Assembly (NCBI GenBank): GCA_973895155.1
Contig: OZ316892.1
Span: 8,670,048 to 8,734,047, forward strand
Direction of reading: 5' to 3'
DNA from: Marsupella aquatica
Lineage: Eukaryota > Plantae > Marchantiophyta
DNA length: 64,000 nt
The position numbers were made by a program, and so were the translations under genes. Shown here piece after piece: positions 5,501 to 49,615 of the stretch. The notes beneath the pieces were generated by a model. It ran no database searches. It was not told where the DNA came from and saw nothing but the letters and a program-made list of their open reading frames with translations. Each line of letters starts with the position of its first letter. The first letter of the stretch is position 1.

Positions 5501-7027
5501 TGGGATGATGATGTGATCTGCGACTCTTGTTGCGAGAAGAGTGTAGGTTCGTGAGTGTTTTTGGAAGGGGGTTTGTCTTGTTTCATCGGTCGACCGAAGA
5601 GGCTCGCATCCGGTGTTGTAAGATCGCAGCTTGTCTGTCGGTATTAAAGAGCTCGGTAAGGAATGCTCGCTATGATGCTATCCAGCGGCCCAACTGATGG
5701 TCTACGTTTGCAATCATGTTACGTCTTGGTTGACATCCCGTTTTACTGTTCCGGGTTTCGGGATGTTGCTGATAGGTCCAATTTAGGCGTTTGTGTTCGT
5801 CGCCGACTGAACTATGTTATCGAGTTTGTCTGATCGCGGTTGTGGTAGTAGCCGTCTATGTGTCATCTGCTTGCTAGAAGAGTCCAGTGTTGCCCCTGAC
5901 CTTCGTTTAGTGGTTGTGAGTCCGGGGAGTTGTAGTGTATAGGTCTCATTACAATGATCTTCGTTTGTATCCAGATATCCGTGACAGATGTGCTTCAGGA
6001 TTACGCAATGAGTGTCATTGCTGGGTGCTTGCCGGCGGTCGATCGGTTATCCCATCCGAAAGATCGGAAAGATCTTGCACGGCGCTGCGTGTGATCAAGT
6101 TCTGCATGCTTCGTCTAGCGAGCAGGTTGTGTAAGATAACATCGGGGCCGGCGTTCAGAGCTCTTCCGCAGTAGTGTTCCGAGACGAAGATCGGGGGATG
6201 TGTACTTCCGTCTTTGATTTGCGGAGTGGTCTGGAGCCTGGCAGTGTTATGGTAGTACATTGGACTTCAAATGGGAGACTGCTGTGAAGTCCTATGTTGA
6301 ACAGTAGTGATCAATGGTTGGAGATCTTGCGTCTTCGGTACGTGATTCAAGTTAAGCTTCTCGAATGATTGTCAGGGATAAACGTCGCAACCTACCAAGG
6401 ATCTACCTCATTGTTGAGATAGAGTAGGACCTTGCGTAACGTTATGTCGTGTATCCCTGGTGTGGTTGATCTGTGAGAGATGGTTCGCTTAGTTCTCAAA
6501 GCTGGTTTGACAAAAGACTTCGCCCGTCATGCTTAAGCGGAGGTAATTATGTTCTTGAACCATTCAGGTTTCGTTAGGTTGTTTCCGAATGTGCATATGT
6601 TCACTGCCAATCAGCCTTGGTGAATGGGAAAAAGTACCAGGCTGATTGCACCACGATACGACCTTGCCCTTATGGGTGCGCTTACGGGGCAGGTCAATGT
6701 ATCAATAAAAAATGTCGCATTTGTGTAGGGGAGTGGTTATGACCCTCCCCGAGTGTGTGGTGCGGACTGGCGGTTCCCGTGTGGCTTTTGTGGTGCGACG
6801 GGGAGGGTACCGTGCATCTTGTCCTGTCTTGTCTTGTGTCTGGACTACGGAACAGTGTCAAATCTGATGGCAACCACTGCGCACATCGGTAAGCGGCTTG
6901 GAACTAGTGTCTGTAGGATTTGACGTTCAGCATCGCTTCTTTGCCCTTGTTGTTTGCAAAGTGTCTACTCCACCCTTCCAGCACTTCCACTCCAAAGTAT
7001 GACTACATATTTCTTCCTCCGTTACAT

Positions 7028-7301
7028 TTCGATTGTCCAGTAATGTTTCCACATACTCCCTATCAGTAGCTCTGCAGCATCCTGTGCAACGTTGACACGC
7101 ATACCTGCGATTTAATCCATCTGCTCCGATTGATTCCGGTTGTCAACTGATCTTTCCACAGATTTGCCCTATCAATAGCTCTCGTGCATTCTATGCAACT
7201 TTGACCTCCAATCTTCTCCGTTCTATTTCGATTGTCAACTAATGTTTCCACAGATTTGCCTTATCAATAGCTCTGCTGCATTCTGTGCAACAATGACATC
7301 C
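7028..7301. repeat. Three degenerate tandem copies of a ~70-110-bp unit
   Basis: TTGTC..TTTCCACA..TATCA(A/G)TAGCTCT..GCAT..TGCAAC repeated at about 7028, 7139 and 7227. Confidence 0.75.
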
Positions 7302-8357
7302 ATCTGCTAGTGGTGAAGAACGAACATAATACACCATGTTTTGGTGCTTTTTAACCTGGCTTAACTTGGGGGTCGTCTTCAACAAACTGAAGGCAATAAA
7401 TTTCTGACCCGGTTACTACATCGACCCTGTTTGGAACTGATTTGTTCTACGCAGAGCTGGCGTTTGCAAGCGGATTAGTGAAGAGAAGGTATTCACAATT
7501 ACCCAAGTTATAGCGATTTCGTAGGTAGATTGTGATTTTGTACTGGTAATATCTAAAATTATGTTTTGTGTATGTTGGCAAAGGCATGCCAGTCCACCTG
7601 AATTGCCGGAATGTGTGCGTGTTTGATTGCGATGTGCCAAATTCAAGTCGCGCGCCAGGATTGTATCAATTCGTAGGATGTCGGTTATACTTGTAGACTT
7701 AAGTATTTGCGATAACTGTTCCTGTCAATATCTATAGTATTTCGGTCGAGTTTGTGATGGTGGTGTAGTTGTTGCTGGGTGCGAATTGCACTAGCAATGT
7801 GAATGTAGAGTAAACTGTGGCTTTGATGAATATAGGCTGCAGGGAAACGGGACACTGGGAAAAGTAAATGGAAGATATGTTACAAGTTTGCTGCCTCTCG
7901 TGTGCGAAAAAAAAAGTAGCTGATAATAAGATGATGCTTAAACTTTGCGCTCGCATATCGACTCGCAAATCTATGTTCCGTGGGTATCAAACAGGCATTC
8001 GAAACAATCATCAGATGAAATCTCTACATCGAATGGGACGTGGCCTACTACATATAGGCGGAAAGATCGCGCACACACAGGATGGAACATAACCGCAACC
8101 ATGATTGTTCAAATTCAAATTTGACTCGGCAAAATCCATCTTGTGCAGATGGTAGTGAACAATGGTCAAGTGCCTCCAGGAGCTGCATCGGAAAACTGTC
8201 ACAGACGCCTATGTGATGTAAATAGTTCGTCGTTTACACTATCTGCAGCAATTAGTCATTTTGTTCTTAAGTATGACGTTACCGTTTGCAAATAAAGCAA
8301 TCTGAATTCCTTCGACCGAAGTTCTTAACTTTATGTTTCGTCTTTTGTTTGTTAGCT

Positions 8358-8528
8358 TCTAGTTGCAGGATGAATAGTTCAATGTATCGCACGAAAATAA
8401 TTTTTTTGCCCCATCATCTTATTCAATATGCACTTAGCTGGCCTCTAGTTGCAGGATGAATAGTTCAATGTATCGCACGGAAATAATTTTTTTGCCCCAT
8501 CATCTTATCCAATATGCACTTAGCTGGC
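8358..8528. repeat. 86-bp tandem duplication
   Basis: TCTAGTTGCAGGATGAATAG..CACTTAGCTGGC twice, near identical. Confidence 0.9.
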
Positions 8529-9887
8529 TTGTTTGCGATAGCCAGATAAACCCATGTTTATACTTCTCGGATAATTTTTTTCCCCTTGGGAAATTTTTCT
8601 TGGATGCGGAGTGCGGGATCGGTTGGATTGTGTAATCCATCGCGCAGGAGGTGATTGTGCAGTTGTTTTGTTTTGGCAAAACCTCCCCCGTCGACCTGCA
8701 CATCTATGGCAAAGTATGGAATGCCGGAGAATCATCAGCTATGAAAAGCTTTCTCGGGCTAATAACGAGCACTGCCACGCCGAGTATGGAATGACGGAGA
8801 GTATCGTGAACTATCAAATACTTTCACGAGCTATAATGAATTCAGATGTGAATGGTACAACTTTGTTGGGTCATACCGTCCCTCTACCCTTTTCTCCAGC
8901 TGTCGAATTAAACTTTGCTCGGCTGCCCCGTATCCCTAGGAGTGAACTCCCAGCAGCGATTATAGTTTGACAGTTTTAGGGGAACTGTAATTACGTAGGA
9001 CAAATTTTGGCGTTTGTTACACTAGATGCTTTTAACATGGAACCGTGTGAAGATATAGTATCTCCTGCAGAAGCTGAGTAGGTTGCATAGTTTATTTGTG
9101 GTTAGCTCTGCGTACAAAGACAGACCTCAAATGCTGGACATAATGTCAGTATGTTTTGTTTAAACCCTGGGACTTCAAAGGTGTCCAATTTGACGGCCTG
9201 GTGTATTTTTAATGCTCGGTTTGACTGTCATCACTTCAGTGTACCAGCTAATTACAGGGTTGATACGGTGATTTCGTCCCTAATTCTGATCGGTGTGTCA
9301 AGTGATTGTGGTACTGAGGGAACTGTCGCATCTTGTCCGAATGAAGTAGTCGACTTGCTAGTGTTCGAACGATGGGTCGATGCGTGAAGTTGGGGTGGCC
9401 GATGGAGTATTGGATGCGGTGTACATGGAGTTGAAGTAACCGGTGCTCGAATGACAAGTAACGGATAAGTAGTGAACTTGCATGCCCGAATTCTCGAAGA
9501 ATCGATCTTTCCAGCCTGGATTGGCCAGGTTTGTGGGTCCGAATCCCACTGGAAAGCAATTCCTACCTTGTGCTATTTATCTTTTCACCCCTGCGGCTTT
9601 GTTGAAAGAGATTAACCGTTAATTGGCCGGAATGTACGAAATTATTTATTGTCACGTCTCTTGCGAACGGTAGCCGTCGTTGCCTACATGGCAATATAGA
9701 TTTGCACAGAAGGACATCAGGCTGGGTCCCGGTAGGCTCATTGCTCGATGTCAGTTTAATTTTTTCTCCGCTTCAGAGCATTTGGTGCGCCTCCCCCCTC
9801 CCCATAGAGGGACGGCTCTTGTTATCTGCCCATAATTTGCTTTCTCCCCAGGGAAGATCTCCACTTGATATGTTTACATTGCTTTAA

Positions 9888-9902
9888 ACCGCCACTGTCC
9901 AT
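9888..9902 (+). repeat. Left terminal inverted repeat of the Kolobok-like element
   Basis: ACCGCCACTGTCCAT preceded by TTAA; exact reverse complement of 19640-19654. Confidence 0.9.
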
Positions 9903-11494
9903 CAAAGAAACCTGGATCCACCAGGTTTCTTAATTTAGGGCATGTCCAGCTCCGGGCATCCCCCGACAGTTTTTGGCCGGTCAGTGTGGCCGATACTTTT
10001 TGGACGGGTCAGGTGTGCAAATGTAGCTCGGTGTCCCTACTAGATTTGCGGAGGGCGTGAGAGTTATTGGAAGTCCTGGTCCAGCTTCACTCCGCCCATG
10101 CTGCGCGAGTGTCAATAGCAGACTCGAGCAATTCTTGCTCTCCGGTGCTCAGCAAGTGTTCAGCAAGTGTTCAGCCACATGAGTCGACCATTTCTCCTGA
10201 ACCCATGCTGCTGAATAGCATGGAACGTGATTGCTTGAATATGTGAAGTGTCCTGCACCTCTCTTCCGCCCATGCTGTGCAAGTGGAGAATGGATCGTGA
10301 ACTCCTTATGAACCAATATTACTGCACATAACTGTTCAGCAGCCGAGTCGTGCAATTATCATACCCCATTCTACTACGCAGCAAATTCTGCTTTTCATGA
10401 GCAGAGCGTTCATCCACAGATCGAGATTTCACATGCCAAGCTTCAGTTGTCGGCAGCAGCGAAGTAGGAGTTACCTTCACGTTTATATTTCGACGAGTTC
10501 GGCTGGCAAGGTGGACATCGTACTGAATGAGCTCGGCCTTCAGGCCCGTCTTGCACTTGTGAGAGAGTTTTAGAATTGGAATATGTCACACTATCAATTT
10601 GCCATTCACAAGATCTTGTCCCAGACGTCGGGAATAAGTCCACCCAACTGTGCTAATTTATTTTCTCTGTAGTGGTCCCCGGGGTGGTGCCACTACTGAT
10701 TGGGTTTCACCATTCATTGAGCCTCGGCCGTTCATTAATTGCTAGTAGGTGGAAAGTCAATTCGGATAAAAACGATTAGTGCAACTTCGATAATTGCTGT
10801 AATTGAAAGGTCAGCCTGAACAGGACAGTGCTCATGGAACAAGATTTACACTTCACATCATTTCCGTCTCTATTCTGCTGCACTCATCTTTGCAACTTCA
10901 TCCATCTCTTGTTCTTCCTTTCCCTTGCCTTGGTCCCGATCGAACAAGTCTTGCACTTTCCCAGAAGTCTCTGTCTTCAAAATTCACTGTCAAAGATCTC
11001 GATTTTGCAGCTCCAAAACAAGAAGCCTCAGAACCCGAGAAACGCCTGCAATCTCGTTTGAGACTCACCCATCAACAATAGCACACTAGATTGCGAGTAG
11101 ACGACAAAAAGGGCTTGACTTGAACATTATGTTGTACTGGTTAATTAGTTGGCCACACGAACTCTAACAGTGCTCCCGATCACCCTCTCAAAAATCCTGC
11201 GGATCTCCCTGGCTTCTCTACTGTCTACAAACTAGACAAGATTTCTTGTCCGATCCTGGTTCTTCCTCTCCATATTCCCTTGCCGACATGGTCTGTTGTC
11301 TGGATCCAAACCAAAGAATATAGTCATTCATTCTCATCCTCATTTGGTTGCCTTGAATTCACTCTTTCTGTTTAGGAGGTTTTTTTTTTGAAAGGGCATG
11401 CTCAAGTCACTTTTGCAACCCACTATGTTATTCATTTCGTCCTTATGCTGTGCAGTTGTATTGTCATTGTTCATCGACCTTCCGGTCACTCAGC

Positions 11495-12240
11495 ATGAAT
11501 AATCTTAGGTAAACTCTATCTTGCAAAAGAAATTGAAGAAATTGCTAATTCCCCTTCAAATTATTTTGGCTCATGTCTACTTTGCTTGTGGCCTGTTTTT
11601 ATGCATAGAAGTTGCCCCTATTTTTTCTCATGTATTTGGGTCTTACATGCACAAATTTAATGAGTTTGTGTACAATTTACTTTCCATCATGCACTGTCTT
11701 GCATAATAGTTGTTTGGTCTTGTTTAATTATCTCATTTAAGATATAACATGTATTCATTGAACAACAACTAGTATCCTGCCCAACTTTTCTAGGTTTATA
11801 GTTGCATGACATTGAATTTAAATTGGCCATGTTGTAGGAGTGTCGAGCATGAAAACAGACCGGCAGAATTGATATCCTATGGAAATGGCATATACCGCTT
11901 GTCATGGCCAGTTCCTCCACCAGGACGTCGGAAATTCCGACTTCTGAGACATGTAGACATTGTTGCTAGGTTCCCAAATTTTTGCACAGCAATCGACGAA
12001 AACCTTGCTGACCTCAACTCTGCCCAGGCTCTTTCTCCTGCAACAGTTCAGGCTTTTCATATGTGTGCTGCATGGGCATACACTGAAACTGTTCCCCGCA
12101 GACAGAGGTACATTGTCTACCGCAAACTAGCACATGTTGCTAGTTTTGCAGATAGAACACCCTTCCCGGCAGCAGTTACAAGTGCAGTGCAGTCCACTTG
12201 GGAGCTACCTGGTGAACAACATGTGGGTTTCCGGTTTTAG
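11495..12240 (+). CDS. KolX-like protein (resembles the P2X7 C-terminal ballast domain), about 138 aa
   Basis: Exons 11495-11508 (ATGAATAATCTTAG|gt; first exon less certain) and 11838-12240 join in frame. The C-terminus RQRYIVYRKLAHVASFADRTPFPAAVTSAVQSTWELPGEQHVGF fits the recalled KolX/P2X7 pattern R-Y-x-x-Y-R..R-x-x-x-P-x-x-V..GxxxGF. The gene lies tail-to-tail with the transposase inside the TIRs. Confidence 0.75.
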
Positions 12241-13147
12241 GTTTGGAGGTTGTTTTTACTTTTTTCTTTTCATCATTGTTCTTATCACTTGAGTTATTTT
12301 CCATGTCTAGGTTATTTGTTCTACTAGTTTTTGGGTCTTTGTATTGCAAGTGCCACCCTTTCTTTCCCAACTACAAGTGCATGCCACCTAGTAGTTCCTA
12401 AGCAAACACCATGTTGGTGTATGCCTTTAGTTTTCTAAGGTTGTGTGGTTATCTTTTCATCAGTATGAATTTGCTTATTGTTCCATGCTTTCTTTGTTTT
12501 ATCATACTATTTTATTATTTTTATCTGGCATGTGCCTCCTTCTTCTCCCAAGTGCATTAAGAACCCTAACTTGGGAGATGCAAGGCAAAAACCATCCCTC
12601 TTTCTGCATTTACTTGTTGAGGTTCACTTGTGTTTGTTTAAGTTTATTTATTTGTTTATTTCTAGTACTGTCATTTATGGGTTCTTTGTGCTACTCTTTA
12701 CACGTGTTTCTTTGGCTTGTGCCTCCTTCCCCCTCCTCTGGGTTGGAACTCCTACTGGATGGCAGCACGAGGGGTTCAATTCCCCTTTGGAGTATTGTCA
12801 AATTTTGGAAAATTGTTTCAATTTTTATATCTACTAGGTTCTTCCGTAATGCCATGCCATGCATGCTACTCTTCATAGGCAGGGCAAATGAGGGATACTG
12901 GGGCCATGGCCATTTGCCAAAAGTGTGACAAATCTCAACATAACTCACAACTTTCATTCATGGTACTAAACCCTAACTTTCACATCCTACTAATACACTA
13001 ATACAAAAAAGAATAGATGGCAAGGTGATATATTGGACTAGAAAAATGACAAATGAATATAGTAAAATCCACAACTTATATATCTCCTACATGTCAAATA
13101 AACAACACGTGTGGATTTTTCCAAGCCAAAATAAATTTATCAAGTGC

Positions 13148-16100
13148 TCATGAATCATAATCTACACCTCTTTCGAATATGATACGGGCCACGTCTTTCT
13201 TCCATCTGATGCTTCTAGGAACAAGGTCATGGACCCTAGATGGCCGTTGACGAGTGCAAGTATTACTAGGCTGTCGTGTTCTAACTCGTACCACCTCCCG
13301 ACCGATGTTCTCATTCCAGCACATTGCAGCACAAGCCATGCGGGCTTCGTGGGTCATGGAAAAATGAATCCTCTTCATAGCATATTTGTTGACATTTCCA
13401 TGAAATGTTTCACTAAGGAAGTTTGCCCGGGCTCTAGTGTAGAAGCGAACATTGACTGCAGTGACATTCTTGTGCAACCATTGCTTTAGAGCTCTATGTG
13501 TAGCGCCCCCTGTAAAATCCACAAGTATCCACATTAATTTATTTTTTTGGAAATATTAAAATATTACATAACAACCCAAGCACATTATTCATGTCATATG
13601 CAACTTACAACCAGGGAGAATTGCTAGTAGATTTTCACTTACCTGCGACATAATATGGACTATAAATTGCACCTTCCTCACAACACTTGCGAGGAAGGAA
13701 ACTTTTACAAGGTTCATGGTTACCAGCCCAGTGATCAGCTGCAGTGATGATCTCCCTAGCCAACATGGCAGCATCATCATTTCCCCTGCAAATAGTCATT
13801 AAGATTCAACTCAAGAATTAGGTCAGTTCAATCCAAAAGTAACATTTACAGAAGTCATGTAAATGGAAATAAATACCATAGTTATCATCCTACCTTTCTT
13901 TTGCATTGCAACAACAATAGTAAAACCAACTCTTCAACTTATCACCAAGTTGCTTCTCTGTCAATTCTAGATACTTCAACTGCCTCCTGGTACGCAATGT
14001 GATGTCCTCCTCTGGCAATCCTCTATGTCTTCCAATGCGATACACCAACTCTGTCTTATTACCTGTGTGTCTCAAATTTTGGTTCGTACACCAATCTGAC
14101 AACACCCGAACTGTAAATCTGCCCAATTCCTCCAAGGATGTTGCACCATCAATCCCATAAGCAGGTGCTATTTCTTTCACATTTGCCAACTCTTTGTTAA
14201 ACTGCTTCAATAGATTTTTACATTTGTGCCACAAATCCTTCTGGTTATCAATATTGAATTCATAAATTATATTATCAATAGTGTTGTTATCATCGTGAAC
14301 AACCTCATTGATTGTAATCCCAACATTCTGAAGATGTTCCAAGGCACGACGTACACCAAGTGCCTCAATAGCGCCTGAATTCCCTGCCTCAACCCGGTCA
14401 ATTGTTACAAGCTCTACTATCTTACCAGTAGCCACGTCTATCACGGGAACAGTGCCATGGTATCCAGAACGTGATGAGTCCCAACGACAATCCACATATA
14501 GAATTAATGGAGTGGAACCTACAATTATCATAAACCACAAAATAATGTTATAAAATCACCATTTACATGATGCTCTAACAACATGGTACCTAGTAAAATG
14601 ATAAATTCATTACTCAATGTAATTAACTAACACAAGCTTGTGCACTAAAAGGAAGACTCATATACCGTCTCTTTCTGCTAGGCCTCGTTGCAACCTTTGT
14701 TTCTTATTATCCCAAACTTGCAATACTGCTCCAATCCATCCAATGTCTCTTTGGGCTCCATTTTGAAATCGAAACCAATGTGTATTTCTTGGAACATGGA
14801 TTTGAATGTGAGAGAATAGTTCACTTATCATGTTGTGTGTTAGACCAGCAGAGAGAGCAGAGTGGTAAATTAATCCAGTGATTGCAGGAACACCTGTATT
14901 CATAAATTAAACAAGATTAGGTACACAATATTAAGCCATTTAGGTACAAAAAGACAGAAGTATAAAATTAATTTGAGTAGATTGCATACCTCTATAAAGT
15001 TCATTTTCTCCGGTCATGAAAGATTGTGCATGCCCTGTTGGGCACTTTAGCTTCAATATCCACAACTGATGGTGTGTGACAATGTCCTCAACCGAGTACT
15101 TACCGTCACAACCTTCAATACGACAATTCACACAAAACTCCTGGAAAAATTCGTGGACCTTACTCTTTTGCCAAAAAGCATACTCCACCAAACTCTCAGG
15201 GTCTGACTCAGTTTCTTGAGAAGATGGCTCATACTCATAATCCAAACGGCAGTCAACTTCTATTTGCTCAGAAGAAGTAGATGCCTAAAACAACACACAA
15301 TAATTAGTAAGTTAACTAAAAATGCAGTAATTGCAAGGAGGAATTATAACAGACTATGAATTGATACAAATGACAAGTACAAGAATGTGCAAAAATGTAA
15401 TACCTGAGTTGGAGCCTCTTCAAATCCAGAATCCATGAAAACCATATCATCTAATCCAAATGTTGTTGGATCAGCCACATCCAGCAAACAAATGGGTCCA
15501 TCCTCATTTGACATCTGTTTAGGGTTTAGGGTACAATATTTGTTTATTAGTTGAAGCTAAGCTTTACATTAAATTAATGTACACCTATGAAAAACTAGAG
15601 GTCCTCATTTGCATGACTTATCAATGTATGGAACAAAGGTAGCACAAAGCAAATTAATTGAAAAAGCTAAACTACACAGTTACCTGGGAATCGGACATCA
15701 TAGAACAATCTTCCAATTCTATGTTGGAGTCCGGAATGTGCTCTGCATCCTCCCTCCCAGACTGAATGCGGTCAAATACACAAGTGTTGGAGTATGAATG
15801 AACTTGCTCATCATGTGAAGGTGATGCCATATCAAAATTGGAATCATCATCATTTGGAACGGAGGATGGTGCACCACAAAATGGCTGCAATAAATAAATA
15901 CAAACATAGGTTAACAATAATAAAACATGATGTATCGGCAAAGATAAAACCTCTAAATTTTGGATAACCCAATTTTTTTAACACATACAAAAGGAGAGAT
16001 GGTGAAAGAGTTATACTCCAATTAAATTAAAATCTGGAAAGAAAGGGATTAGGGAAGGCAAACAAGTTGAAAGTAGAATGAAAAATGTTATTAAAAGTAC

Positions 16101-16406
16101 CTGAGCAATCAACCCAAAGGTTCCCAAGTCCTCTTCATCAGCAAGGTGTTCATTATTTATCCATCCAAAGTCATCTGGACCCTCAAATGCCATTACATCC
16201 CCTTCTTCATCCTGTCCGTGATGAGCACTAATAACAGCCGATATTTGCTCGGACATACCATCCATGAGCCAAGCCATAATCTTTCCATGAGACATGTTGA
16301 GGGCCCCTTGTAAGGCATGGTATCTACGTATATGACTTCCAGGAAGCCTACATCGAAGACTGCCTCCAACTTGGTGATAATCAATCGCAGGCGGTGGACG
16401 GTCCAT
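13148..16406 (-). CDS. Kolobok/Mutator-like DDE transposase, 8 coding exons, about 756 aa
   Basis: Exons 16406-16101, 15884-15684, 15514-15404, 15284-14990, 14893-14666, 14518-13894, 13785-13643 and 13509-13148 all have GT..AG introns and join in frame without stops. Motifs: CxxC..CxxGH (CVNC..CPTGH), D1 in VDCRWDS, D2 in VVHDD, DLWHK, DHWAGNH, E in SETFHGNVNKYAMKRIHF, and RMACAAMCWNEN. SAP-like insert at about 14025-14126. Confidence 0.88.
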
Positions 16407-17504
16407 TTGTCCGTCTCTAGCAACCTAACAATACAACAAACAAGAATTTGTAAATTATATGTCCTTGTATTTTTCTAGTACCTCAAAGGTCATGTTTGCA
16501 AGAATGCACTTATGAATGAAGATGTAGAAGTTCACACCAGGTCCATGATTACAATGAAGAAAAATGTACTGCAGAAAAATACATTGAGAATAATAATTGC
16601 AGCAAGTAAGAGAAAAAGAGCCCCACGCCATTCCCAATTATGCTCTAAGTGGATGGTTTGGTTCATACCTTCCCTTAGAGCGAATCCAGATTTATGGTAG
16701 TTCACCAAAGTCAGTACCCTACTACTGTAGATGGCAAGTTATGCAAAACTTGGTCATTTCCCTCGGCAAGCTGCATTTGACCCACGTGAGTCCCAGATGT
16801 TTTGCAGGTTGTGTCAGCTCCTAGGATGAGACGAGGCTGCCTAGTTCACTTTCAACTCCCGTCATTTTGAAGTCGATCGGATTTGTTATAACCTCCATGA
16901 ACCTGCATACTTTCCTAGCCTCAATGTGGGAAGACTCAGTATAATGTCTTTCACTCCTAGAGTAACCAATACAATCTAATAAGATAAGCTACTTTTTTGG
17001 ATCTGCATCACGCAAAACCGGACATACTACAGTCCGACCTCAGTTGGAAGTTGTGCATTTTTCATAATTTTCAGTCCGTCATCATTGAGAAGCTACATAA
17101 AAAAATTTCATAGACTACATGTGTTTGAATTGACATACTTGGAGCCTCTCCGTTCAGCCCATAATTTTGAATAACGTTCATCATCTCCCCTCGCGTTTCC
17201 CCAAGTTATAGACAACAAATTTGCGACATGCATTGGGAGTTGCTGGACCTTGGGCTGACGTTGATGGTTACCCTATTGTTGTAGTGTGCAGGTGACTGAA
17301 GGCTGCTAGAGACGGGGTACGTCCATTGTTGCAAAAAATGCTTGTCTACATAATTATCTTGCCAAAATTGCATACCTTCTGCGTAGACGAACAATTGCCC
17401 CTCAATCACCCTCGACCTTCAGTGAACTCTTCTTTATCATCGATAATCTGTGAGGCACCAGCGGTCAAGCTATCTTCCGACCAGCCAATCACGCCTCATT
17501 TTTT

Positions 17505-18110
17505 ATGAAAAGCTTTTCACATTGTTCTTATCAAATGGCGAACAACTGAGATTTGCTAGTTCCGAAAATTCAAACTTAGCGTCACTACTGATGCGACCGT
17601 CATGTGATGAGAGCACCTTTGCGGTTTTCAGAGCTTCACTGACTGCCGCCCTTACATGGGCCATTCGATCGTGTTTTCAGTCATCCAAGGCTTCAACACT
17701 ATGTTCCAATTCAACTCTGAGGCAAGAGATGCTTTATCCACAATGGGTAGCACAGCCTGCAAAAGGCGTGCAACACAAGCTTTTTGCTGCCAAGTACCAG
17801 AAGCCGATGTTTGACGAAGAACCTCGGATTGTTGAAGTGGCCAAAGGAAGGAGAAGCGTTGCCAAACTTTTCCTTCTTCAAAGAGATTGTGCTTCATTGC
17901 GGGGACAGACACAGAAGGTTCGCAGAGTTTTGTTACCCTGTTTTCTCGATGGCTTGTGTCCACTATGGCAGAGGGTTCTGTGTCTGGTATCAATGAAAGA
18001 TTGAATTATGATCTTGCCTTATTGTGATATCTTCTGTTCAACAAACGTAAAGCGCTCATTGGTGCATGCAAATGGGCAGACACGGAAATCAAGCACGATC
18101 TTGCCCGTAA
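17505..18110 (-). pseudogene. Decayed ARM/HEAT-repeat gene fragment (SINE1/TORTIFOLIA1-like) carried inside the transposon
   Basis: Minus-strand translation gives ..RENRVTKLCEP..AMKHN..WQQKACVARLLQAVLPIVDKASLASEL / SVEALDD*KHDRMAHVRAAVSEALKTAK. This resembles the plant SINE1/TOR1 HEAT segment (..CQSDQMAYVRGAAYEA..) but has a frameshift and in-frame stops. Confidence 0.45.
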
Positions 18111-19639
18111 TGACTTGAGAGTGACAGCTCGGTTGTGCTGGTGCACCTTATAATAGAACAATCAATAAAATCTCTCGCTGATAGCAGGAGTAGTTACACT
18201 TTGCTTGTCGCGATTTGCCTGATTTGTCTCGAAAGGATACAGACGCGACAGTGACAAGATGCACAAAATTTATGAGTACATTTGATCTTTGGTGCACTTT
18301 TGTTACTATCAAGTGTGTTTGAACAACGTCAGTACTTACTTGCAACTACTACAACTTGGATCGATGGAGGAGATGTACTCCTTGTAGCCATCTTCGATAA
18401 TGCAAATCCATGACCTAGGTTGTACATCAAGCGGATGTACTCCAAAGAAATTATAAAGGGATATCTTTAGGGCAGACATGTTTAGCAATGCAACAGCCTT
18501 GTGTATGTCAGTGAGAAGATTGCTGCGTCTTGGATCCAGAACTTAGTAGCATTCATTGTGAATTATTGAAGTTTCAAGGGGAAGATTTTGCACGCAAGGA
18601 CTTGTTCATTTTCGGGAGTGTTGGTCGAATGCTTCGGTTCCCACCAACCTTGCCGCGCATGCTTCTACAAAAACAGAGCACATATCCAATTTGGTCTCTC
18701 CCCTTTGAAACCTACTCCACTTCGTAAGACGAAGCATCCCACGGTGAGCGATTATGCACATTGGCTGTATAGTCAATAAAATCTTGGAAGATCACGTAAT
18801 GGTCAACATGGCTCTGGGTAATGGTCAACATTCGGGGCCATTGGACATGTCCATGACAGTGGGGCTGTGAGGATGCTGCGATGTGACGCAGTGAACCATA
18901 CTTGCAAATCTGAGTTGCGACTACTGTTGGTGTGATGTTGTGCAATTTGAAGAGATGTTTGTGACTTTCCGCCCCCACATTGAATGGATTGGCAGCGGGA
19001 TTCGGCAAGTCAAGAAGGATGCAGTTTTGTTAGTGATAAGCATTAGTGTCGCGAGCATGCTTGAAGTCCTGGAATGTTTTTAGCTTGGATGCTTTTCCAG
19101 CCCAGCAGAGCACGTCTGTGACGAACGTCCATAGCTTTAGCAGCAGATTTTCCAGCCCAGCCTACTGATCAACCCCGATGGCTATGGCAGCACCTTCTCA
19201 CGGTGACCTTCTCGGGGCAATGCACGCCATCGATGAATGGTGCTGCTCCCAATCCAATCTTGAACCACGCCCGCCCCCGGCCGCAGAGCAAAGCTGGCCT
19301 TAGCAGACCGACACGAGAGCCGTAGGCTTTCAGTAGTTTACTCCCACTTTCCTTTGCCACGACGAAAACAACAAATTCTCGTCCTTTCTTCGTTCGGTGG
19401 GGTCCCCCTTGTCGATGGCTATGGCAGCACCTTCTCACGGTGACCACCCCACTCACAAACCCACTCAGGATTGCACAGGCCCGTTTCACAGCACTGCCAC
19501 GTACTAACTACGGACGCAGTGTTTTGCGGAGCCTTTGGCTGGGGCTAGCCGGCTCTGGCTGAGAATCGGAAGCCTGGCCTTTGCTGGGCACCTCTGGAGA
19601 GAATGAGCTGACCGGAACTTGTCCCCTTCTGATATTTAT

Positions 19640-19654
19640 ATGGACAGTGGCGGT
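19640..19654 (-). repeat. Right terminal inverted repeat of the Kolobok-like element
   Basis: ATGGACAGTGGCGGT followed by TTAA. Confidence 0.9.
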
Positions 19655-20228
19655 TTAAAACGATTGGGCTTCGATCCCGTGCTAGTATTGTGTACGCATT
19701 TATAAATAGCACTACTTTTGTTTCATGCACTAATTGGTTCTACTATATTTACCGAACTCACCTTTTAATATTTTGTCGTCATTGTTTATGATATATATGG
19801 TTAATATAATGAACTTTGTCTTAGTAACATTTTGTTTGATGTATATATCCTTATTTTAGAGTGCCATCACAATGCATCACTTGTATAATTTAAATTTAGC
19901 ATTGCTTTGGCACCCCAATGAATGTGTTTTTATCTTTTCCCACTTCTAGCATGCACCCTCTGTTGCAAATCGTAGGCAATTTCTGCCATTTCTAGTGAAG
20001 AGGGAGAGTATTGACACTTTGAGAGGTTTCTCCTAAATATAATGAATGAAAGAAAGATATATACTTGACACCTTAATTTGGTTTACATTCTCGAACCCAA
20101 GACGTCTTAACTATTTATATTTATGTTGGTTGATTTCTTCAAAGACTTGCAAAAGATTAAAAAAATACAACCCCTGTTTCTCTGGGCACTTCGACCTTCG
20201 GTCCTTGTGGGTGCTTGACCCCGTCTGT

Positions 20229-20345: not shown

Positions 20346-23300
20346 TAACTTGTGGGTGCTGACCCAGTTTGTTCACCAATTGGTTTTTTCGAGTCAAATA
20401 ATTGTGTGTTTCCCGATTTCCGCCGAGAGACGGTCCGTGGACAGTTCGGGAGGCTTCTTCTATAGGGCAATTCTCCCACCATTCTTGCAGCTAGTGCATT
20501 TCGAAACACTGTCATGCTCCTGAGATTGATTGCAAAGATCCCAGGGCCTACTGGATTGCCTTTCTCTGAGATGAATCAAAGCAGCTTTTATCTTTCTTTA
20601 GATTTCGATTCGTAGAAGTCAAATATTCGTGCGTCTATACAGTTCGATAGCCTTCTTCTTTGCGGAGTTTCTCCCGCCAGTTTTGCGGCTCTCGTGCATT
20701 CCTAATCGCTGCCTTGCTTCTGGAAGGGAGTGCAAAGATCGAAGGTGATACTAGAGGACCATTTCTCGCAGATGACTCTAAGCAGCTGTATGTTTATGCA
20801 GGTTTCGATTCGTGGAAGTCGGTCAGCCAGCTCAGGGCTCGAGTTCCGGACAGCAGTCGGTCGATAAATGTTACCCGACATGGACCCAATACTTTACAAC
20901 AGGATGTTGGCAGTAGGCAGGGAGTTCTGGACAAATGAGCGAGACTCGGTCGCTCTAGCGCGAATGATATTGCGAGGGCGGAGACTATGGGTACAATTTT
21001 TCTCGATCTTCTTAAAGTGAATCCTAAGCTGGAGCAGACGGTCGAGAATGCGTTCCCTGCTGTTGAGGAGAGTGGTGGTGAACAGGCTATTGTTCACAGA
21101 GAATTGAAGCAACTGATTCGACTGTTTGGCAAATCGAAAAATTAATAACACGTACGAGACCGTGTTCCACTGGCTACTTTGCATGACTGCGGAATGCGCA
21201 GCCAGAACACAGTCCTCCGAGCCGTCCAAACGCTAGAAAAGAATGACGATGGACAGTTCCAAACCAAAATTGAACGCAAACAGAATGGCGGATAAACGCG
21301 AAGCAAAGCTCCCTGGATTTCAACTAGCGCTTCCTTCTAAACATGTAGCACGACGACCATACCACGCTCCAACTTGCCATCACACCAGTGCTATTGCTCT
21401 TTTGCGGTAGATATCACCGGAGATTGCATTCTATCAAAGTTCACAGCACCCGCAGCAGTTCTTCACCTTCTTCCTATAATACTCCTATGCGCTGCCCTCA
21501 TACAACCCTCTGCCCTTCCATCCTTTTCTCAGCACGTCCAAATGACCCTGCGGAGATCTTTATGTTTGCATCATAATAATTATCACATTATTATGATGTT
21601 TTCCTTGTTTTCTTCGGAATGTATGCACCATCCAAATCATCTCACCAGCCACACCAAGTGCCTTGCTCCCTATTGATTTCAAGCTCCATTTCCTGTCAGG
21701 AACAGGCAATATCATCGTTCTGCGTGACATCGAGACCCTTGTCGCATTATCCACAGTATCCGTACTTGGGGTCGGACACGTCCGTTTCAAGATGCTGGAC
21801 CAAGAACATCACTCTTCCGCTTCTTCGTTCCACTAAAGCCCCGCTTTCTTTCATCCTGATGCGAAGCGGTGACTACCTCCGTCCCTCCACTCTTCGCATT
21901 ATAAGATACCTAATCGATTCGCATGTGTTCATGTTGATTTCGGGTTGATTTCGAGCTGGCCTTCGTGGATCGGCAGCCGGTCTGTTCGTCCGATCCCCAA
22001 ACCCAAAATCTCTTCTTATATTTCTATCTGGAATCTGGATTCGTTCGGACGATTCACCTGATTCCTGATCACTCGAGTTTTCAAACGTATGTCTGTTGAT
22101 TTGAATAATATTTGGATCAATAGCATGACTGTACACAGATCCCCGTGCCTCTCTTTGGTAGCTCCTCTTTGGGCACTCCTGCTAAATTTCACTTCTGGGC
22201 TGCACGTCGATCATCGCCCGGTTTTGCTCAGAAGTTAAGCTGTTGTTTGATTTAAGAAGTAATGAATGACGCCAAGCCAGAGAAGATGTTTGACAAGAAA
22301 TCTTTGCGCCAGAAGATAAGGGAAGAAGGCATCGAAATTTAGTTTGCCCGTTCTGGGCTCAGCTTCTTTCTGGCTCCCCGGGTTGTAGCACGTCGATCTT
22401 TGGTACTCCTGGATGGAGCCCTTTTGGGCTCTCCGTTTTGTATGCTGAATTAACAGAATGGATTTCATTTGGTTCATTCGAGGCAAAAAACAGGAGATGA
22501 AGGAAGGAGGCATCGAAACAAAGGTAGATTAAGCAGAGCATTCTCCACGAAAACCAATTGCTGCACAAAGGTTGAGAAGAAGCTGTTGCTTCAAGTGGGA
22601 ACAACGACTCAATTGTAAACGGTATCAATTGTAAAAGGTACTCCTCATTTGAAGTAACTGCACTAGTCCTACGCTCTGTCGCTGTGCCGTGCGACACGCG
22701 TTCCAAAAGCAAGGATCTCGTCCGCTGTATGTTCCTGCAACGTAATCAGGTTTGACGATTCAAGATCATGGCGGCGATGTTTGACCGTCTTCGCTGTCGT
22801 CAAAGGAGTGTCGCTGAAACTTGGGCCACAGTTTTATAACACTGCGATTCCACGTGTTGCTCATGAACGAACGAAAGAGTAAGGGTTGTTGAGGATACTA
22901 CTTGGCGCTTCCAGCAGCGCTGTGGCAGGAACAGATGTCTGGGCCAAGGGATGCCGCGTGTAGTCACTCATTGATTTTCTCAGCATGATGCGAACATATG
23001 GCCCTGAAGCTCCTCTCCGAATGACTCCTGGTCGAGAATTCCCGTTCCGAAATTTTTGGCTGCAGTGCGGTCATTTTCGAAAGCTCGCATGAGGTTGCTG
23101 GCTAGAAGCTGGAGTAAATTATGACGCGATTGCTTCAGGTCAATGACGCAAATTTACTAAAAAAATTCATCCTCTGCGGAATTCGACGAAACAAATTGCA
23201 TGGTTGCTGTCGGCTATGCCAAAACAATTGATAGAGAAATGAGGGCTGATATTATTTCGTCGTTGGAAGAATGTGAGGCGTAGTAGCGGGGCAAGTATAT

Positions 23301-30891: not shown

Positions 30892-31345
30892 CAGTTGTAT
30901 TGGAGACTAAACCAATGGAACGGATGTTGAAGTCTTATTAGTTCTATTGGAGACTAGAAACCAGTGGAATGCGGATTGAAGTCTATCTTGGATTGAAGAA
31001 TTTTGAATTGACTCTGACTAAAGTTCTATGAACGGAACTTGAAACAGACTAGAATTGTACAAGAGAAAATCCAACCGGGGAATTAAAGCCAGTTGTGTTG
31101 GAGACTAGAAACCAATGGAATGGTGATGGAAGTTTGTCAGTTGTATTGGAGACTGAAACCCAGTGTAGTTTTTAAAGTCTATCCTCGATTGCAGATTTTT
31201 CAATTTTATGCACGGAACCTGAAAACAGAGTAGAATTGTATACGAGCAAATCTGAACCGGGAATTTAATGCTGTTAATTTTCAATTGGCTCTAGCGTTGT
31301 TTGCACGGAACTTGAAAACTGAATCGTGCAACAGAAAATCTGGAC
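30892..31345. repeat. Higher-order tandem repeat (~200-bp unit containing ~47-bp subrepeats)
   Basis: AGTT..TTGGAGACT..AACC occurs four times and CGGAAC.TGAAA three times, in nested periodicity. Confidence 0.75.
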
Positions 31346-32868: not shown

Positions 32869-34989
32869 TTACGTTTGAAATATTGTTGCGAAAGAGACCT
32901 GCCTCTGGAGCTTGGACATACGATCGGAGTGGAGATTGAGAAGCGCTACCATCCCGTGGCCCTCGGCATTGGGCATCATGGTGATCCCGTCAATGAGTGG
33001 GCGAGGTGGAGAGTTTCTGGCTGCAAACTTGGGCCTGCCCCATCCGAATTGAATGTCATACAAAGGCAAGAATGTCCAAAAAGTGGCTGCGACATCGTGG
33101 CCCAGCGAATTGACGTGGTCGGACTTGGAGCTCCCAATTCCTTGCAGCTCTACCCAGTCAATGAGCGATCTAAAGTATTCGTCGGTAATATTCCTAGTGG
33201 CGATTCTGATCAAGCTAGCTGTGTAGTGCAGTGGCTTATTGAGGATGTCAGCTTCCTTAGCTACTGCGCACGCGCTGCACACTACATTGCCAAAATAACC
33301 TGGTTGGAGACCGAGCCTCTTCCTCCCATCCACGAACATGAAGAACTTGGTCGTCTGATCTCTCGCCTGCTCTGCGTCATAAGAATTCGCTGCAGCCCTC
33401 GCTTTGGTCATTTGCTTCCACAAGTGACCCGAGATAGATTCAGCGGACGTAAATGGACGAGGAGTGAACGGAGGTGGCTGCAAATTTGCCTGTTGCTTCA
33501 GCTCGGCGACCTTTTCTTCGCTGAGATCGAACTTCTCTAACGTCGCTGGCTCATCGGTACTCGCCTTTACTCCTTCGCCACATGTTTCGTCCAAGCACTT
33601 GCTACTGTACCCATTCACTAGAGTTGGATTGGGGGGATCACGAGCTTTCAGGACACAACGATTATGTTGAGGCTTGAGAGAGATAGGCTTTCCAAGGGCA
33701 ACCTCGGACCATGATCGCAAAAAGTGAGTCCCACTGAAACCATCCGCGATTGTGTGGTGCCAGCTCGTGGCAATAGCTATGGTGCCACAAGTAAACCTTG
33801 TGACTTGGATGATCAGCACCGGCATGGAACTGATCTGGTCGGGAATGTAGAGCGGTCCAGGCCCAAGTCGAGCAACATCGAACCCTGACAGCAAATGATT
33901 TGCTCGCGCCCCTCCTACATCCTTGAGGTCCGCGGCCACTGTTGCCTCGATCCACACTGCGCCTTCGTTGTTGCAGTACAGATCTACCGTCCCATCTTCC
34001 CGGAGTTTGAGTCGGCCGGCAAGAGGGTAGAAGTCCAGCAGCGTCTTCGCCAGTGTCTCCTTCAGGGAGCTTGTTACGTCTACAAACGGTCGTGACTCGT
34101 CGATCACACTCTCATAGTAATGGATGACGCTACTGAATGTGGGGTTGACGACACGGTCTAGATTGCTAAGAACCAGCCAGTGTTCGTCGATGGACACCGA
34201 TGCCTTCACAAGCGTTTTAGCGAGGGCCTTCCCCTTGGGTAGCGGCTTCTTCTCCTGTACTCCTCGCACGTCCTCTCGGACAAGCTTGGATCCCTCACTT
34301 ATGTCTTCGTCTTTCGTGATGGATGACACTAATGGACTGTGTGTGATCTCTCCCACTTTCTGCGCTGTCTCTTCAGGTTCTCCTTCTAGAGAAACAAATT
34401 CCTTCGCCGGAGAATTCAGCTGTGGTAGCGAGCTTCGAGTTGTTTTCGTGAATGACCACGACCTGGCTAGAGCTTGGTTCACGTCGAGATTCAAGCTGGG
34501 CTTCATCAAATCTGCAAGTCTCACCTTCCTCTCATCCGGCGGCACAGTAAACGACCAAGACCGCCTAAATGCGGTCTTGGGGCTAGTACTGCTCTCGAGC
34601 ATCGAATTCGTCGTGCTCTGCTGGTCCGAAACATAGGCATCTGTCGCTGCGGATTCGTTCAGCAGTACGAATTCGGAAGAGGATTCAAGGTCCTTAAATA
34701 CGGTTGGCGACTTCGGTGCCTGCATCGCGGCGCAGCACTCCGCTTCCAAAAGAGAAACAATCCCCATGCATGAATATTCCTGTATCTCCTGACGGGCTCC
34801 TGACTGACTTTCGTTCCAATTCACCCGATTCGCCCAAAGACTGAGTTCTTCCAAATTAAATCTTACGAGCCATCTAAGATGTCTGTTCACGGTGAATCCT
34901 GCAAAGCTAATATTCTGTACGCGAGCGACGTCGGAGCTTTTTTCTGGACCAAATTGAACGAAATCTTTTTGACTCAGATTTTTCTGCAT
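32869..34989 (-). CDS. BAHD-family acyl-CoA acyltransferase with a long N-terminal extension
   Basis: 706-aa single ORF (true start could instead be ATG 34767 or 34725). Motifs LSNLD, FYPLAGRL, QVTRFTCG, catalytic HHTIADG (HxxxD), GYFGN and DIQFGWG (DFGWG variant). Confidence 0.92.
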   Translation of the reverse strand: MQKNLSQKDFVQFGPEKSSDVARVQNISFAGFTVNRHLRWLVRFNLEELSLWANRVNWNESQSGARQEIQEYSCMGIVSLLEAECCAAMQAPKSPTVFKDLESSSEFVLLNESAATDAYVSDQQSTTNSMLESSTSPKTAFRRSWSFTVPPDERKVRLADLMKPSLNLDVNQALARSWSFTKTTRSSLPQLNSPAKEFVSLEGEPEETAQKVGEITHSPLVSSITKDEDISEGSKLVREDVRGVQEKKPLPKGKALAKTLVKASVSIDEHWLVLSNLDRVVNPTFSSVIHYYESVIDESRPFVDVTSSLKETLAKTLLDFYPLAGRLKLREDGTVDLYCNNEGAVWIEATVAADLKDVGGARANHLLSGFDVARLGPGPLYIPDQISSMPVLIIQVTRFTCGTIAIATSWHHTIADGFSGTHFLRSWSEVALGKPISLKPQHNRCVLKARDPPNPTLVNGYSSKCLDETCGEGVKASTDEPATLEKFDLSEEKVAELKQQANLQPPPFTPRPFTSAESISGHLWKQMTKARAAANSYDAEQARDQTTKFFMFVDGRKRLGLQPGYFGNVVCSACAVAKEADILNKPLHYTASLIRIATRNITDEYFRSLIDWVELQGIGSSKSDHVNSLGHDVAATFWTFLPLYDIQFGWGRPKFAARNSPPRPLIDGITMMPNAEGHGMVALLNLHSDRMSKLQRQVSFATIFQT

Positions 34990-35083
34990 GAAATGAGAGC
35001 TTTCCCATCAGTTAGTTTGATCGAGTAAATTTCGAGAAGGTCCTAAGTGATTGAATTGTAGACGACTATCTGAGACTCTCCTT

Positions 35084-35237: not shown

Positions 35238-35570
35238 ACACGCGTATATATTTATGATGACAGATTAGATAGATAGAAGCTAGAGTTGGCAAGTTTAGAT
35301 GTTTGAGACGAACCAGTCAGCGTACACAACGTACCAAGTCAGAGGCGTAGAGATCGGGTGAACGAATTAGTCGTAACGTTTGAATGTGTCATACATCACG
35401 CCAAAAGCACACAAAGGGGGAGACAGGATCCTGGCGGGGAGTAAACAAGGGAAAAATTAAAGACACGAAACCAAATAAGTCCGAGAGTCTCCACTAAAAC
35501 CTTCCTGGGCAGCAAAGTGAAAAATACACAATATAAGTCGACTTGGTTTGTCCTTTCTAAAATATATGGA

Positions 35571-36860
35571 CTAGCTCAATACCCGTGCGTTGCACAAAAG
35601 ATGTCGTGACGGCCAAGATGTCGTTGAGAACAAGAGAGGTCATGTCGGCCAAGAGGTTGTTGAGAAGAAAGATGTTGTATCGCCCAAGAAATTTTTGAGA
35701 ACAAAAGATGTCGTGTCAGCCAAGATGTTGATGATAAACAAAATATGTCGTGTCGGCCAAGATGTCTTTGAGAACAAAAGATGTTGTGTCAACCAAGATG
35801 TCATGTCGGCCAAGATTTGGTTGAGAAAAAAGATGTCGTGTCGACCAAGAGGTTGTTGAGAAAAAAAGTTGTGTTGGCCAAGAGGTCGTTGAGAAAAACG
35901 ATGTCGTGTTGGCCAAGATCTCATTGATAAAAAAGATGTCGTGTGACCGGCCAAGAAATCATTGAGATAAAGGTTCTTGTGTTGGCAAAGAAGTCGTTGA
36001 GAAAAAAGATGTCATGTCGGCCAAGACGTCGTTGAGAGAAAATATGTTGTGTCGGGCAAGACATCATTGAGAAAAAAGAGTCGTGTCGGCCAAGACGTCG
36101 TTGAGAAAACAGATGTCGTGTTGGCCAAGACGTCATTGAGGAAAAATATCAGTGCATTGCACAAAAGATGTCGTGTCGCCCAAGATGTTGTTATCTGAAA
36201 GATGTCATGAAGTAAAAAGATGTCGTTAAGAAAAAACAAGTCATTTTGCCAAAAATGTCATTATGTGAAAGATGGCGTTAAGAAAAAGGTGTCATTTTGC
36301 CAAACTAAGTGATTGTGAAGTAAAAGATGTTATAAATAAAAAGGTGTCATTTCACCCAATATGTCATTAATATGTGAAAGATGGCTCAATACCCGTGCGT
36401 TGCACAAAAGATGTCATTAAAAAAAAAATGTTGTGTTGCCAAAGATGTTGCCAACAATTTTGTTAAGTAAAAACATGTTGTGTTGTCAAAGATTTTTTTA
36501 AGAAAAAAGATGTCATGTTGCCAAAGATGTCAAGAAAAAAGATGTTATGTTGCCAAAGAAGTTGTTAATATGTGAAAGATGTTGTGAAGTAAAAAGATGT
36601 CATTAAGAACTATGATGTCGTCACGATGCCAAAGGTGTCGTGAAGAAAAAATGTTCTTACGTGAAAAATGTTGTGAAGTAAAAGATGTCGTTGCACCAAA
36701 GATGTCTTTATGTCCAAGATTTTGTCAGGTAAAAGATGATGTTTTACGAAAGATGTTATTAAGTATTTTTTTGTTAAGTACAAAATGGTCAATAAGTAAA
36801 GGGATGTCATTAGACAAAGATGTAAGTTGTGAAGTAAAAGATGTTCTTAAGTACAATTGA
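35571..36860 (-). mobile_element. Non-autonomous Helitron-like element (3' end) with internal AAGATGTC satellite
   Basis: Minus strand ends GTGCAACGCACGGGTATTGAGCTAG|T (short hairpin plus CTAG before T, a Helitron 3' signature). About 1.3 kb of degenerate ~36-bp AAAAGATGTCGTGTCGGCCAAGATGTCGTTGAG units adjoin it, with a second terminus-like copy at about 36385. The 5' end was not located. Confidence 0.65.
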
Positions 36861-47205: not shown

Positions 47206-47269
47206 CTCCCTATTCCGTAATACCGCCACATGATACAAAATTAGTCACGGTGCATAGTAGTGTAATAAG

Positions 47270-49538: not shown

Positions 49539-49615
49539 GATTGACAATTGTTTGTTGAGAACGTTGCTTGGAGAGAGAAAGTTTAGTGGGTGGTGAGAAG
49601 GGGTGGGTTGCAGTC

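Follow-up and report, generated by a model that had tools for sequence, protein, structure and literature searches.

Background

The closest described relatives of the element reported here belong to the Kol0 lineage of Kolobok transposons, typified by Kolobok-1_XT (PMC9587614, PMC6004289), whose members combine a TTAA target site and short terminal inverted repeats (TIRs) with sizes of 7-14 kb, a DDE triad accompanied by a DxxH motif, a zinc finger ahead of the last E, a small second gene and no CCHC finger after the first D. (Papers are cited by their PubMed Central identifiers, and what is attributed to them pertains to the sections consulted.) They are further marked by RR termini, a THAP domain and a second-gene product, the P2X7 ballast-like KolX, with seven conserved zinc-binding cysteines, and the only plant hosts that PMC9587614 gives for them are chlorophytes and rhodophytes; the Koloboks of Xenopus have 16-bp TIRs, span 6.8-13.9 kb and usually possess THAP (PMC6004289). 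Here we describe a TTAA-flanked DNA transposon of 9767 bp, located, together with the TTAA on either side, at 9884..19658 of a stretch of 64,000 nucleotides (the window; contig OZ316892.1, positions 8,670,048 to 8,734,047). It shares with Kol0 the first set of features, but differs in its AC termini, in a TCP-like domain that takes the place of THAP, in a SAP insert within the core of its transposase, and in the smaller number of cysteines in its second gene product. We consider it likely that this is a full-length Kolobok-type transposon, probably of a leafy liverwort, whose N-terminal domain is a likely homolog of the DNA-binding domain of the TCP factors and is predicted to form a dimer that would hold the ends of the element.

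Koloboks from the green lineage have been recorded before. Kolobok_1_KlNi, a label that probably stands for Klebsormidium nitens, and Kolobok_1_MicRcc299 (Data S5 of PMC9587614) represent a different lineage, because a CCHC finger follows their first D and is absent in the liverwort clade. The consulted sections of PMC9587614 name no land plant, and the only plants mentioned there are algae, including the probable Klebsormidium element; a survey that included Kolobok in its screen of 1007 plant genomes reported seven superfamilies, Kolobok not among them (PMC12973397), and PMC11735767 offers, in the sections consulted, no superfamily detail for Riccia. In a literature search, outside which lay Repbase and Dfam, no Kolobok element was described for Riccia, bryophytes or Chara and PF20700 was absent, and the consulted mentions of Kolobok in angiosperms (spinach, Stellaria, lupin, Brassica) proved to be entries in lists or automatically generated repeat tables that describe no element. 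The present element extends the Kolobok-type transposons into land plants with complete and recently multiplied copies, and a plant-native, TTAA-specific transposase is a possible tool.

TCP factors regulate how plants branch, the shape of their leaves and the symmetry of their flowers, and other plant-specific factors, namely WRKY and FAR1/FHY3, are thought to be derived from mobile elements. The origin of the TCP factors has been placed in Phragmoplastophyta by a survey of 59 species, with none in chlorophytes and no ancestor found (PMC9480096), and no TCP was found in any algae according to PMC6679135. The DRH loop and the RxR saddle are the DNA-reading parts of the domain, which resembles the ribbon-helix-helix (RHH) fold at about 3 Å (PMC9841405). 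None of these three TCP papers contains the string 'transpos' in its main text. No earlier report of a TCP-like transposase was found in our literature searches, none of which joined TCP with transposase. To our knowledge no TCP-like domain has been reported in a transposase.

Ends of the element and its other copies

The preliminary description of this DNA had reported perfect 15-bp TIRs with TTAA on both sides, AC termini where Koloboks are expected to have RR, and no long terminal direct repeats in the style of KolobokP, all of which was borne out. The left TIR (9888..9902, plus strand), whose first letters are AC, and the right TIR (19640..19654, minus strand) are perfect inverted matches of each other, and are bounded by TTAA at 9884..9887 and 19655..19658. 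The TIR 15-mer has exactly two perfect matches within the window, and among its 261 TTAA sites other TTAA-bounded inverted pairs of at least 11 bp occur only in an unrelated minisatellite element. When the TTAA is counted as the duplication the termini read AC...GT, duplications of 4, 2 or 0 bp within TTAA being indistinguishable from sequence. A subterminal palindrome with 11-bp arms and a 5-bp spacer (9905..9931) is a candidate transposase-binding site. The only internal repeat is an exact direct repeat of 33 bp (19176-19208 and 19413-19445), which lies in the 3.2-kb region upstream of the transposase (16407..19639). This region contains no recognised coding exon: tblastn of 48 homologs produced no match outside the coding region, and Rfam produced none. 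Two metagenome loci matching the TIR pattern were rejected as chance matches with no further likeness.

Other copies were assessed from read contigs of six runs (X1-X6) aligned to the region, the loose ends being taken from the 24 of 337 (X1-X4) and 12 of 158 (X5 and X6) that were listed. Contigs part from the window immediately ahead of 9884 in X1 (at least five), X3 (at least four) and X5 (at least four), and behind the right TTAA in X1 (at least three, at 19658) and X5 (at least four, at 19659). The preliminary description had proposed to look for TTAA at further copies, and in X1, X3 and X5 the divergence indeed begins exactly outside it. Since the flanks of these copies show low mutual agreement (0.53-0.61), they occupy other TTAA sites. 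Two contigs of X5 connect 9929 with 19635 and 9928 with 19640, respectively, thereby keeping the first ~45 bp and the last 20-25 bp, and these look like short non-autonomous derivatives with both ends; because both they and the other copies stop matching at 9928-9929, the shared left end amounts to about 45 bp. X1 and X3 bridge both junctions of the window copy without mismatch, X2 and X4 only the right junction, and coverage of the flanks is scant in X5 and X6; X6, which contributes a small share, has no terminal loose ends among those listed. No empty-site joint was present among the joints listed, 15 of 22 for X1-X4 and 15 of 18 for X5 and X6.

Long internal contigs of X1 have 0-3 differences per 0.4-1.5 kb at about 2.5 times the flank depth, and the summed depth over the transposase is more than ten times that of the flank, which hints at a few near-identical and many older copies; it is only a hint because contig depth does not equal copy number, and the window may itself derive from the best run. 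Two variants were also seen: contigs of X1-X3 carry 19 bp at 10871 that the window lacks, and a form skipping 1502 bp of the 3' part of the transposase (12908-14411) is present in all four runs X1-X4.

The transposase gene

The transposase gene (13148..16406, minus strand) comprises eight exons (16406-16101, 15884-15684, 15514-15404, 15284-14990, 14893-14666, 14518-13894, 13785-13643 and 13509-13148), which, as had been proposed from the letters of the window, splice in frame into a protein of 756 aa containing all catalytic motifs. The spliced model has 0 internal stops, and its introns (96-216 nt, 69-74% AT) are bounded by GT-AG in 7 of 7 cases. The motifs are D390, D456, D475-x-x-H478, the zinc finger H607/H612/C615/C623 and E670, and they are largely retained in aligned homologs: D390 in 74 of 78, D456 in 86 of 90, H478 in 69 of 81 and E670 in 77 of 87, with the zinc-finger positions kept in 99 of 107 (H607), 90 of 106 (H612), 93 of 105 (C615) and 71 of 101 (C623). 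Homology supports the start codon as well as exons 1 and 4-8, the Riccia protein P0001 being 45% identical over aa 189-748 with a separate N-terminal match, and exons 2-3 form an acidic, poorly conserved linker in which the exon borders come from the model only. A SAP motif (PF02037; 14034..14126, minus strand) is inserted between DxxH and the zinc finger; it scores E 0.0011 in the window copy, under the cut-off, and above the cut-off in relatives such as P0024, and the top PDB match of the insert is the SAP of Ku70.

Two residues qualify the description of this copy as intact. The window copy has L564 where contigs of five runs and 68 of 97 homologs have P, and H730 where contigs of four runs and 37 of 53 homologs have R, and because of them the open frame is no proof of a working copy. 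Of the young and possibly active lineage that had been suggested, the youth has support in the near-identical copies, whereas the activity is only putative. In X5 and X6, 10 of the 17 listed differences in the transposase are synonymous (p 0.025 against an expected 0.33), and in X1-X4 the count is 4 of 12, with 2 of 4 and 2 of 5 in the second open reading frame (ORF); as these were drawn from 30 of 555 (X1-X4) and 25 of 929 (X5 and X6) differences, they provide only a weak hint of selection.

A TCP-like domain at the N-terminus of the transposase

The first 62 residues of the transposase (16221..16406, minus strand) constitute a TCP-like domain of the ribbon-helix-helix type, with the signatures D9-Y10-H11 and R18-C19-R20, which is very probably homologous to the TCP DNA-binding domain. 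This domain and the SAP insert are features beyond the preliminary description, the TCP-like domain being the most striking. An N-terminal pattern suggestive of RHH prompted the alignment behind profile A3, which consists of exon 1 of the window and 11 family members chosen before any TCP match had been seen; against 177635 PDB sequences it recovered AtTCP15 first (E 6.5e-4 and 7.7e-4), with OsPCF6 at 0.92. A trimmed and more diverse profile (A4, mean column identity 41%), curated after the TCP match was seen, gave five TCP chains among its nine PDB matches (E 3.6e-7, 7.8e-7, 1.2e-3, 0.016 and 0.07), which include both TCP classes and extend over the whole domain, DRH loop and AEPA tail included. 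One family member, P0121, exceeds the Pfam cut-off for TCP (PF03634) with 28.7 against 23 bits (E 2.2e-6), and it is a true fragment of the family, matching the transposase profile at E 4.5e-46. A profile built without the window row scores aa 9-60 of the window at 20 bits.

Comparison with the solved TCP factors (AtTCP15, 7VP3/7VP6; AtTCP10, 7VP1/7VP2; OsPCF6, 5ZKT) reveals the same ~55-aa domain with a D-x-H loop, an R-x-R strand, a helix-LG-helix unit, an A-E-P-A-like tail and, as a prediction for the transposase domain, a homodimer. The DYH and RCR of the window align with DRH and RIR of TCP15. In the TCP factors the loop is DRH, whereas here it is mostly DYH or NYH, the middle R being mostly Y in the family (P0068 has DRH); the first R of the saddle varies, the domain sits at the front of a transposase, and the ends of the element show no enrichment of TCP consensus sites. 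In homodimer prediction aa 1-72 of the window scored 0.40 against 0.00 for the best control, with pLDDT of at least 64 and runs sharing at least 91% of contacts, and the predicted contacts involve residues 15-22 and both helices. Among microbial proteins, 21 of 30 solved pairs and none of 23 single chains passed the mark used, and the figures for eukaryotic proteins were 17 of 29 and 0 of 30; the pass may stem from the predictor's memory of solved TCP or RHH dimers. A related stretch is found at the same place in a transposase of a cluster labelled Pyramimonas (E 0.002-0.004 among 193 proteins).

Several results count against homology with TCP. The curation of A4 followed sight of the match; Pfam TCP is matched by only 2 of 14 N-terminal sequences, of which P0121 alone passes the cut-off, and by 2 of 11 members in a second scan; exon 1 of the window by itself has no Pfam TCP match, and P0121 by itself finds no TCP chain in the PDB. 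The stretch from the Pyramimonas cluster matches an RHH-type antitoxin family (E 0.0037) better than TCP (0.025), and for this reason the TCP signal may in part be a generic RHH likeness. The TCP consensus sites GTGGGNCC and GTGGNCCC are no more frequent in the terminal 300 bp than expected by chance.

A plausible mode of action can be pieced together from these domains. The spliced 756-aa protein would bind the TIRs or the subterminal palindrome by means of a TCP-like dimer whose chains intertwine, the SAP motif would lend a non-specific grip on DNA, and the RNase-H-like core (D390, D456, E670) would excise the element and reinsert it with duplication of the TTAA target. Derivatives that are short and non-autonomous but keep both ends would be mobilised in trans, and the 138-aa protein of the convergent gene would serve as a KolX accessory factor.

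Probable placement among the Kolobok-type transposons

By-eye comparison with the Kolobok alignment in Data S5 of PMC9587614 shows that the order of the transposase motifs and the motifs neighbouring them match. The same paper states that nearly every Kolobok has a zinc finger between C/DxxH and E, whereas MuDR, P and hAT have none, and that DNA transposons swap accessory domains. With a model of the Riccia protein P0001 (pLDDT 53), Hermes and ISCth4, of the C/DxxH group, rank first (Foldseek E 1.1e-3 to 5.8e-3; VIA Z 10.1, with an rmsd of 6.7 over 228 aligned residues). Hermes (hAT) and ISCth4 (IS256/Mutator) have in common with the liverwort proteins the RNase-H-like DDE core and a helical insertion domain, but differ in having only ~10% identity, other target-site rules and other N-terminal domains. 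By features and structure, the clusters nearest to P0001 in the Atlas belong to PF20700 and derive from molluscs, chordates, cnidarians and parabasalids. Among them are THAP+PF20700 (TM 0.64/0.66 over 487 residues), PF20700+RNase_T and PF20700+YqaJ; the latter two would correspond to the DEDDh and lambda-exonuclease Kolobok lineages of PMC9587614. Thus, the Pfam family PF20700, named 'Mutator-like transposase', appears to cover Koloboks, and may hide plant Koloboks under a MULE label.

The motif order and the Atlas neighbours therefore support the Kolobok-type affinity that had been proposed initially. Features of Kolobok that were found are the TTAA target site, short TIRs, DDE with DxxH, the zinc finger before E and nearest families that are probably Koloboks; those of Kolobok or Kol0 that were absent are the RR/YY termini, THAP (none in the exons of the window or in 14 N-terminal sequences) and the seven cysteines of KolX, and the long repeats and His-Me finger of KolobokP were likewise lacking, with no nuclease match in the 11 ORF pieces scanned. 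Because the termini are AC...GT, we file the element as a Kolobok-type lineage working like Kol0, outside canonical membership. Certain points weigh against even this placement: the only Pfam transposase match is PF20700, mostly under the cut-off and with its 'Mutator-like' label; the termini deviate from the RR...YY of the Kolobok rule; none of the nameable proteins among the top 150 matches was animal; and the comparison with the named Koloboks of Data S5 is by eye. The deep branches of the 30-row transposase tree described below are weak (59/89), and the second protein has no significant match in Pfam, PDB, homolog or Atlas searches.

The second, convergent gene

As previously described, a small second gene converges on that of the transposase; it lies on the plus strand at 11495..12240 and encodes 138 aa in a two-exon model (11495-11508 and 11838-12240). 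Its C-terminus resembles by eye the pattern of two KolX-like proteins in Data S6 of PMC9587614, and a loose KolX C-terminal pattern, written after the ORF had been seen, has one match in the window, which is this ORF, and 0 in 100 shuffles. The model contains two cysteines, or four with an alternative upstream acceptor, in place of the seven of KolX; cysteine-poor KolX-like proteins are known in piggyBacs (PMC9587614). An X5 contig aligns ungapped to the gene over 11988-12241 and is replaced directly after the stop codon, and as its alignment ends right there, coding constraint is suggested. A single-sequence model of the protein had a pLDDT of 49 and no fold match over Z 4.6, and no locus for the ORF was found in viral contigs. 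Judging from these sequence features, the product is probably a cysteine-poor KolX accessory factor. Hence the opposite-strand gene stands as earlier described, but its KolX label does not stand to the same degree, as it relies on a by-eye motif with no significant match.

Host and distribution

A search with exon 6 recovered five proteins of Riccia sorocarpa and one unnamed protein, a profile search 31 proteins, of which 30 are from Riccia (14 R. sorocarpa, 16 R. fluitans), and a HMMER search 1061 matches at E 0.001. Ten of the 150 HMMER matches listed were looked up, and they comprise one Calypogeia fissa, two Riccia, three Chara braunii, one Closterium, one cluster labelled both Pyramimonas and Prorocentrum, and two without a name. 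In a tree of 30 rows chosen by length the window protein is the sister of that from Calypogeia (63% identity, 100/100). The liverwort relatives sit on scaffolds of 21-77 Mb, and the window encodes an HCT-like plant acyltransferase (E 1e-61). For five host proteins of the window no exact match was recovered. The host is likely a leafy liverwort, and the land-plant origin stated earlier is consistent with both the Calypogeia sister position and the plant gene.

The named matches include no moss, fern or seed plant, most matches being unnamed and annotated proteomes often omitting transposons; the transposase profiles yielded no usable locus in metagenome, viral and prokaryote collections. Since relatives occur in liverworts, Chara, Closterium and a prasinophyte-labelled cluster, the family is an old clade of the green lineage and not a contaminant. 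Its presence in green plants appears to be ancient, with a probable loss from the majority of land plants. The notion of a plant lineage therefore holds for presence in land plants but not for restriction to them, with relatives also in Chara and Closterium.

Alternative explanations and the origin of the TCP factors

It is improbable that the transposase represents another DDE superfamily (MuDR/Mutator, hAT, P or piggyBac) or an unnamed sister superfamily of Kolobok, even though the Pfam label, the fold matches to Hermes and ISCth4 and the absence of both the RR terminus and THAP can be cited for this, and piggyBac too targets TTAA. MuDR/Mutator elements have long TIRs and a variable target duplication of 9-11 bp, which the 15-bp TIRs and fixed TTAA contradict. 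piggyBac elements have a TTAA site, termini that start with a pyrimidine and a DDD core; the TTAA agrees, but the termini are AC and the third residue is E. No Pfam match to MULE, hAT, P or piggyBac families was obtained in the homologs scanned, the PF20700 clusters bear Kolobok accessory nucleases, MuDR, P and hAT lack the zinc finger that lies between DxxH and E (PMC9587614), and the fixed TTAA with 15-bp TIRs fits the Xenopus Koloboks (PMC6004289). That the element is a non-plant contaminant or a mis-assembly is very improbable: the two intronless, GC-richer ORFs 4.6-9.5 kb to its right might be adduced in favor, their 'fungal-looking' character being an impression, but both junctions are bridged without mismatch in X1 and X3, the closest protein is that of Calypogeia, relatives reside on large liverwort scaffolds, and the HCT-like gene shares the window. 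None of the three outcomes that the preliminary description had itself set against its proposal appeared, that is, a grouping with MuDR or another superfamily, copies lacking TTAA, or contamination.

The relationship with TCP itself allows three readings. We regard it as evenly balanced whether the land-plant TCPs (TB1, CYCLOIDEA, PCF) are the domesticated N-terminal domain of a Kolobok-type transposase, whose donor lineage is still multiplying in liverworts. The weakly matching domain in the Pyramimonas-labelled transposase would predate the TCP genes, but the Pyramimonas label is unsafe because the same cluster is also labelled as the dinoflagellate Prorocentrum. There is a smaller, though substantial, chance that a Kolobok-type element captured the domain from a host gene, or that both drew on an older common source, leaving the origin of TCP untouched. 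Consistent with capture, liverworts are the source of the named relatives in which the domain is clear, Chara and Closterium fall within a clade that already had TCP (PMC9480096), the best matches are to the class I protein TCP15, as expected from capture from a single class, and swapping of accessory domains is known in DNA transposons (PMC9587614). Against it stand the related stretch in the Pyramimonas-clustered transposase, given chlorophytes without any TCP gene found and with the caution on that label, as well as the diversity of the transposase domains (the 41% of A4) and the reach of the profile to both TCP classes. Between the two directions, donation of the domain from transposase to host seems somewhat likelier than the reverse. 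It is unlikely that the domain is a generic RHH fold whose TCP likeness is convergent or due to chance. The domain is short (~55 aa), single sequences mostly miss TCP, weak matches to the RelB and VapB antitoxins exist, and TCP itself is ~3 Å from the RHH fold (PMC9841405); yet TCP chains lead among the seven (A3) and nine (A4) PDB matches, in which no CopG, Arc or MetJ chain occurs by name, the match spans the TCP-specific D-x-H loop and A-E-P-A tail beyond the two helices, and one member passes the Pfam curated cut-off. A transposase family with a TCP-like domain in algae and liverworts would be a concrete candidate for the ancestor of TCP, and makes the question testable; if domestication is true, TCP joins the plant-specific factors derived from mobile elements.

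Other features of the window

Host genes in the window include the HCT-like BAHD acyltransferase with a long N-terminal extension (32869-35007, minus strand), an intronless signal peptidase subunit SPC22 (49559-50122, plus strand) and pieces resembling tyrosyl-tRNA synthetase (~61154-61774). The GC-richer DNA to the right of the element contains intronless ORFs for an ATP-grasp protein (PF02655; 24277-25710, minus strand) and an alpha/beta hydrolase (PF07859; 27995-29182, plus strand), whose fungal or microbial look makes horizontal transfer into the plant possible. An ORF of 869 aa (44172-46781, plus strand) that starts with a basic region, contains a tandem duplication of 21 aa and ends in a coiled coil has no significant Pfam match, and is possibly part of a retroelement.

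Elements with CTAG-type ends, a short hairpin-like motif and then minisatellite arms of 19 or 35 bp, which we take to be Helitron-like, lie at 35570-36850, 42880-43314 and 63059-64000, and two of them face each other as a 7.7-kb inverted pair. A dispersed repeat of 278 bp is present in inverted copies that are 81% alike (2282-2552 and 47266-47543). Short head-to-tail duplications of 76-200 bp lie between genes at 7012-7302, 8348-8528, 20441-20820 and 30892-31271, and further ones at 53000-53153, 57090-57307 and 58866-59094.

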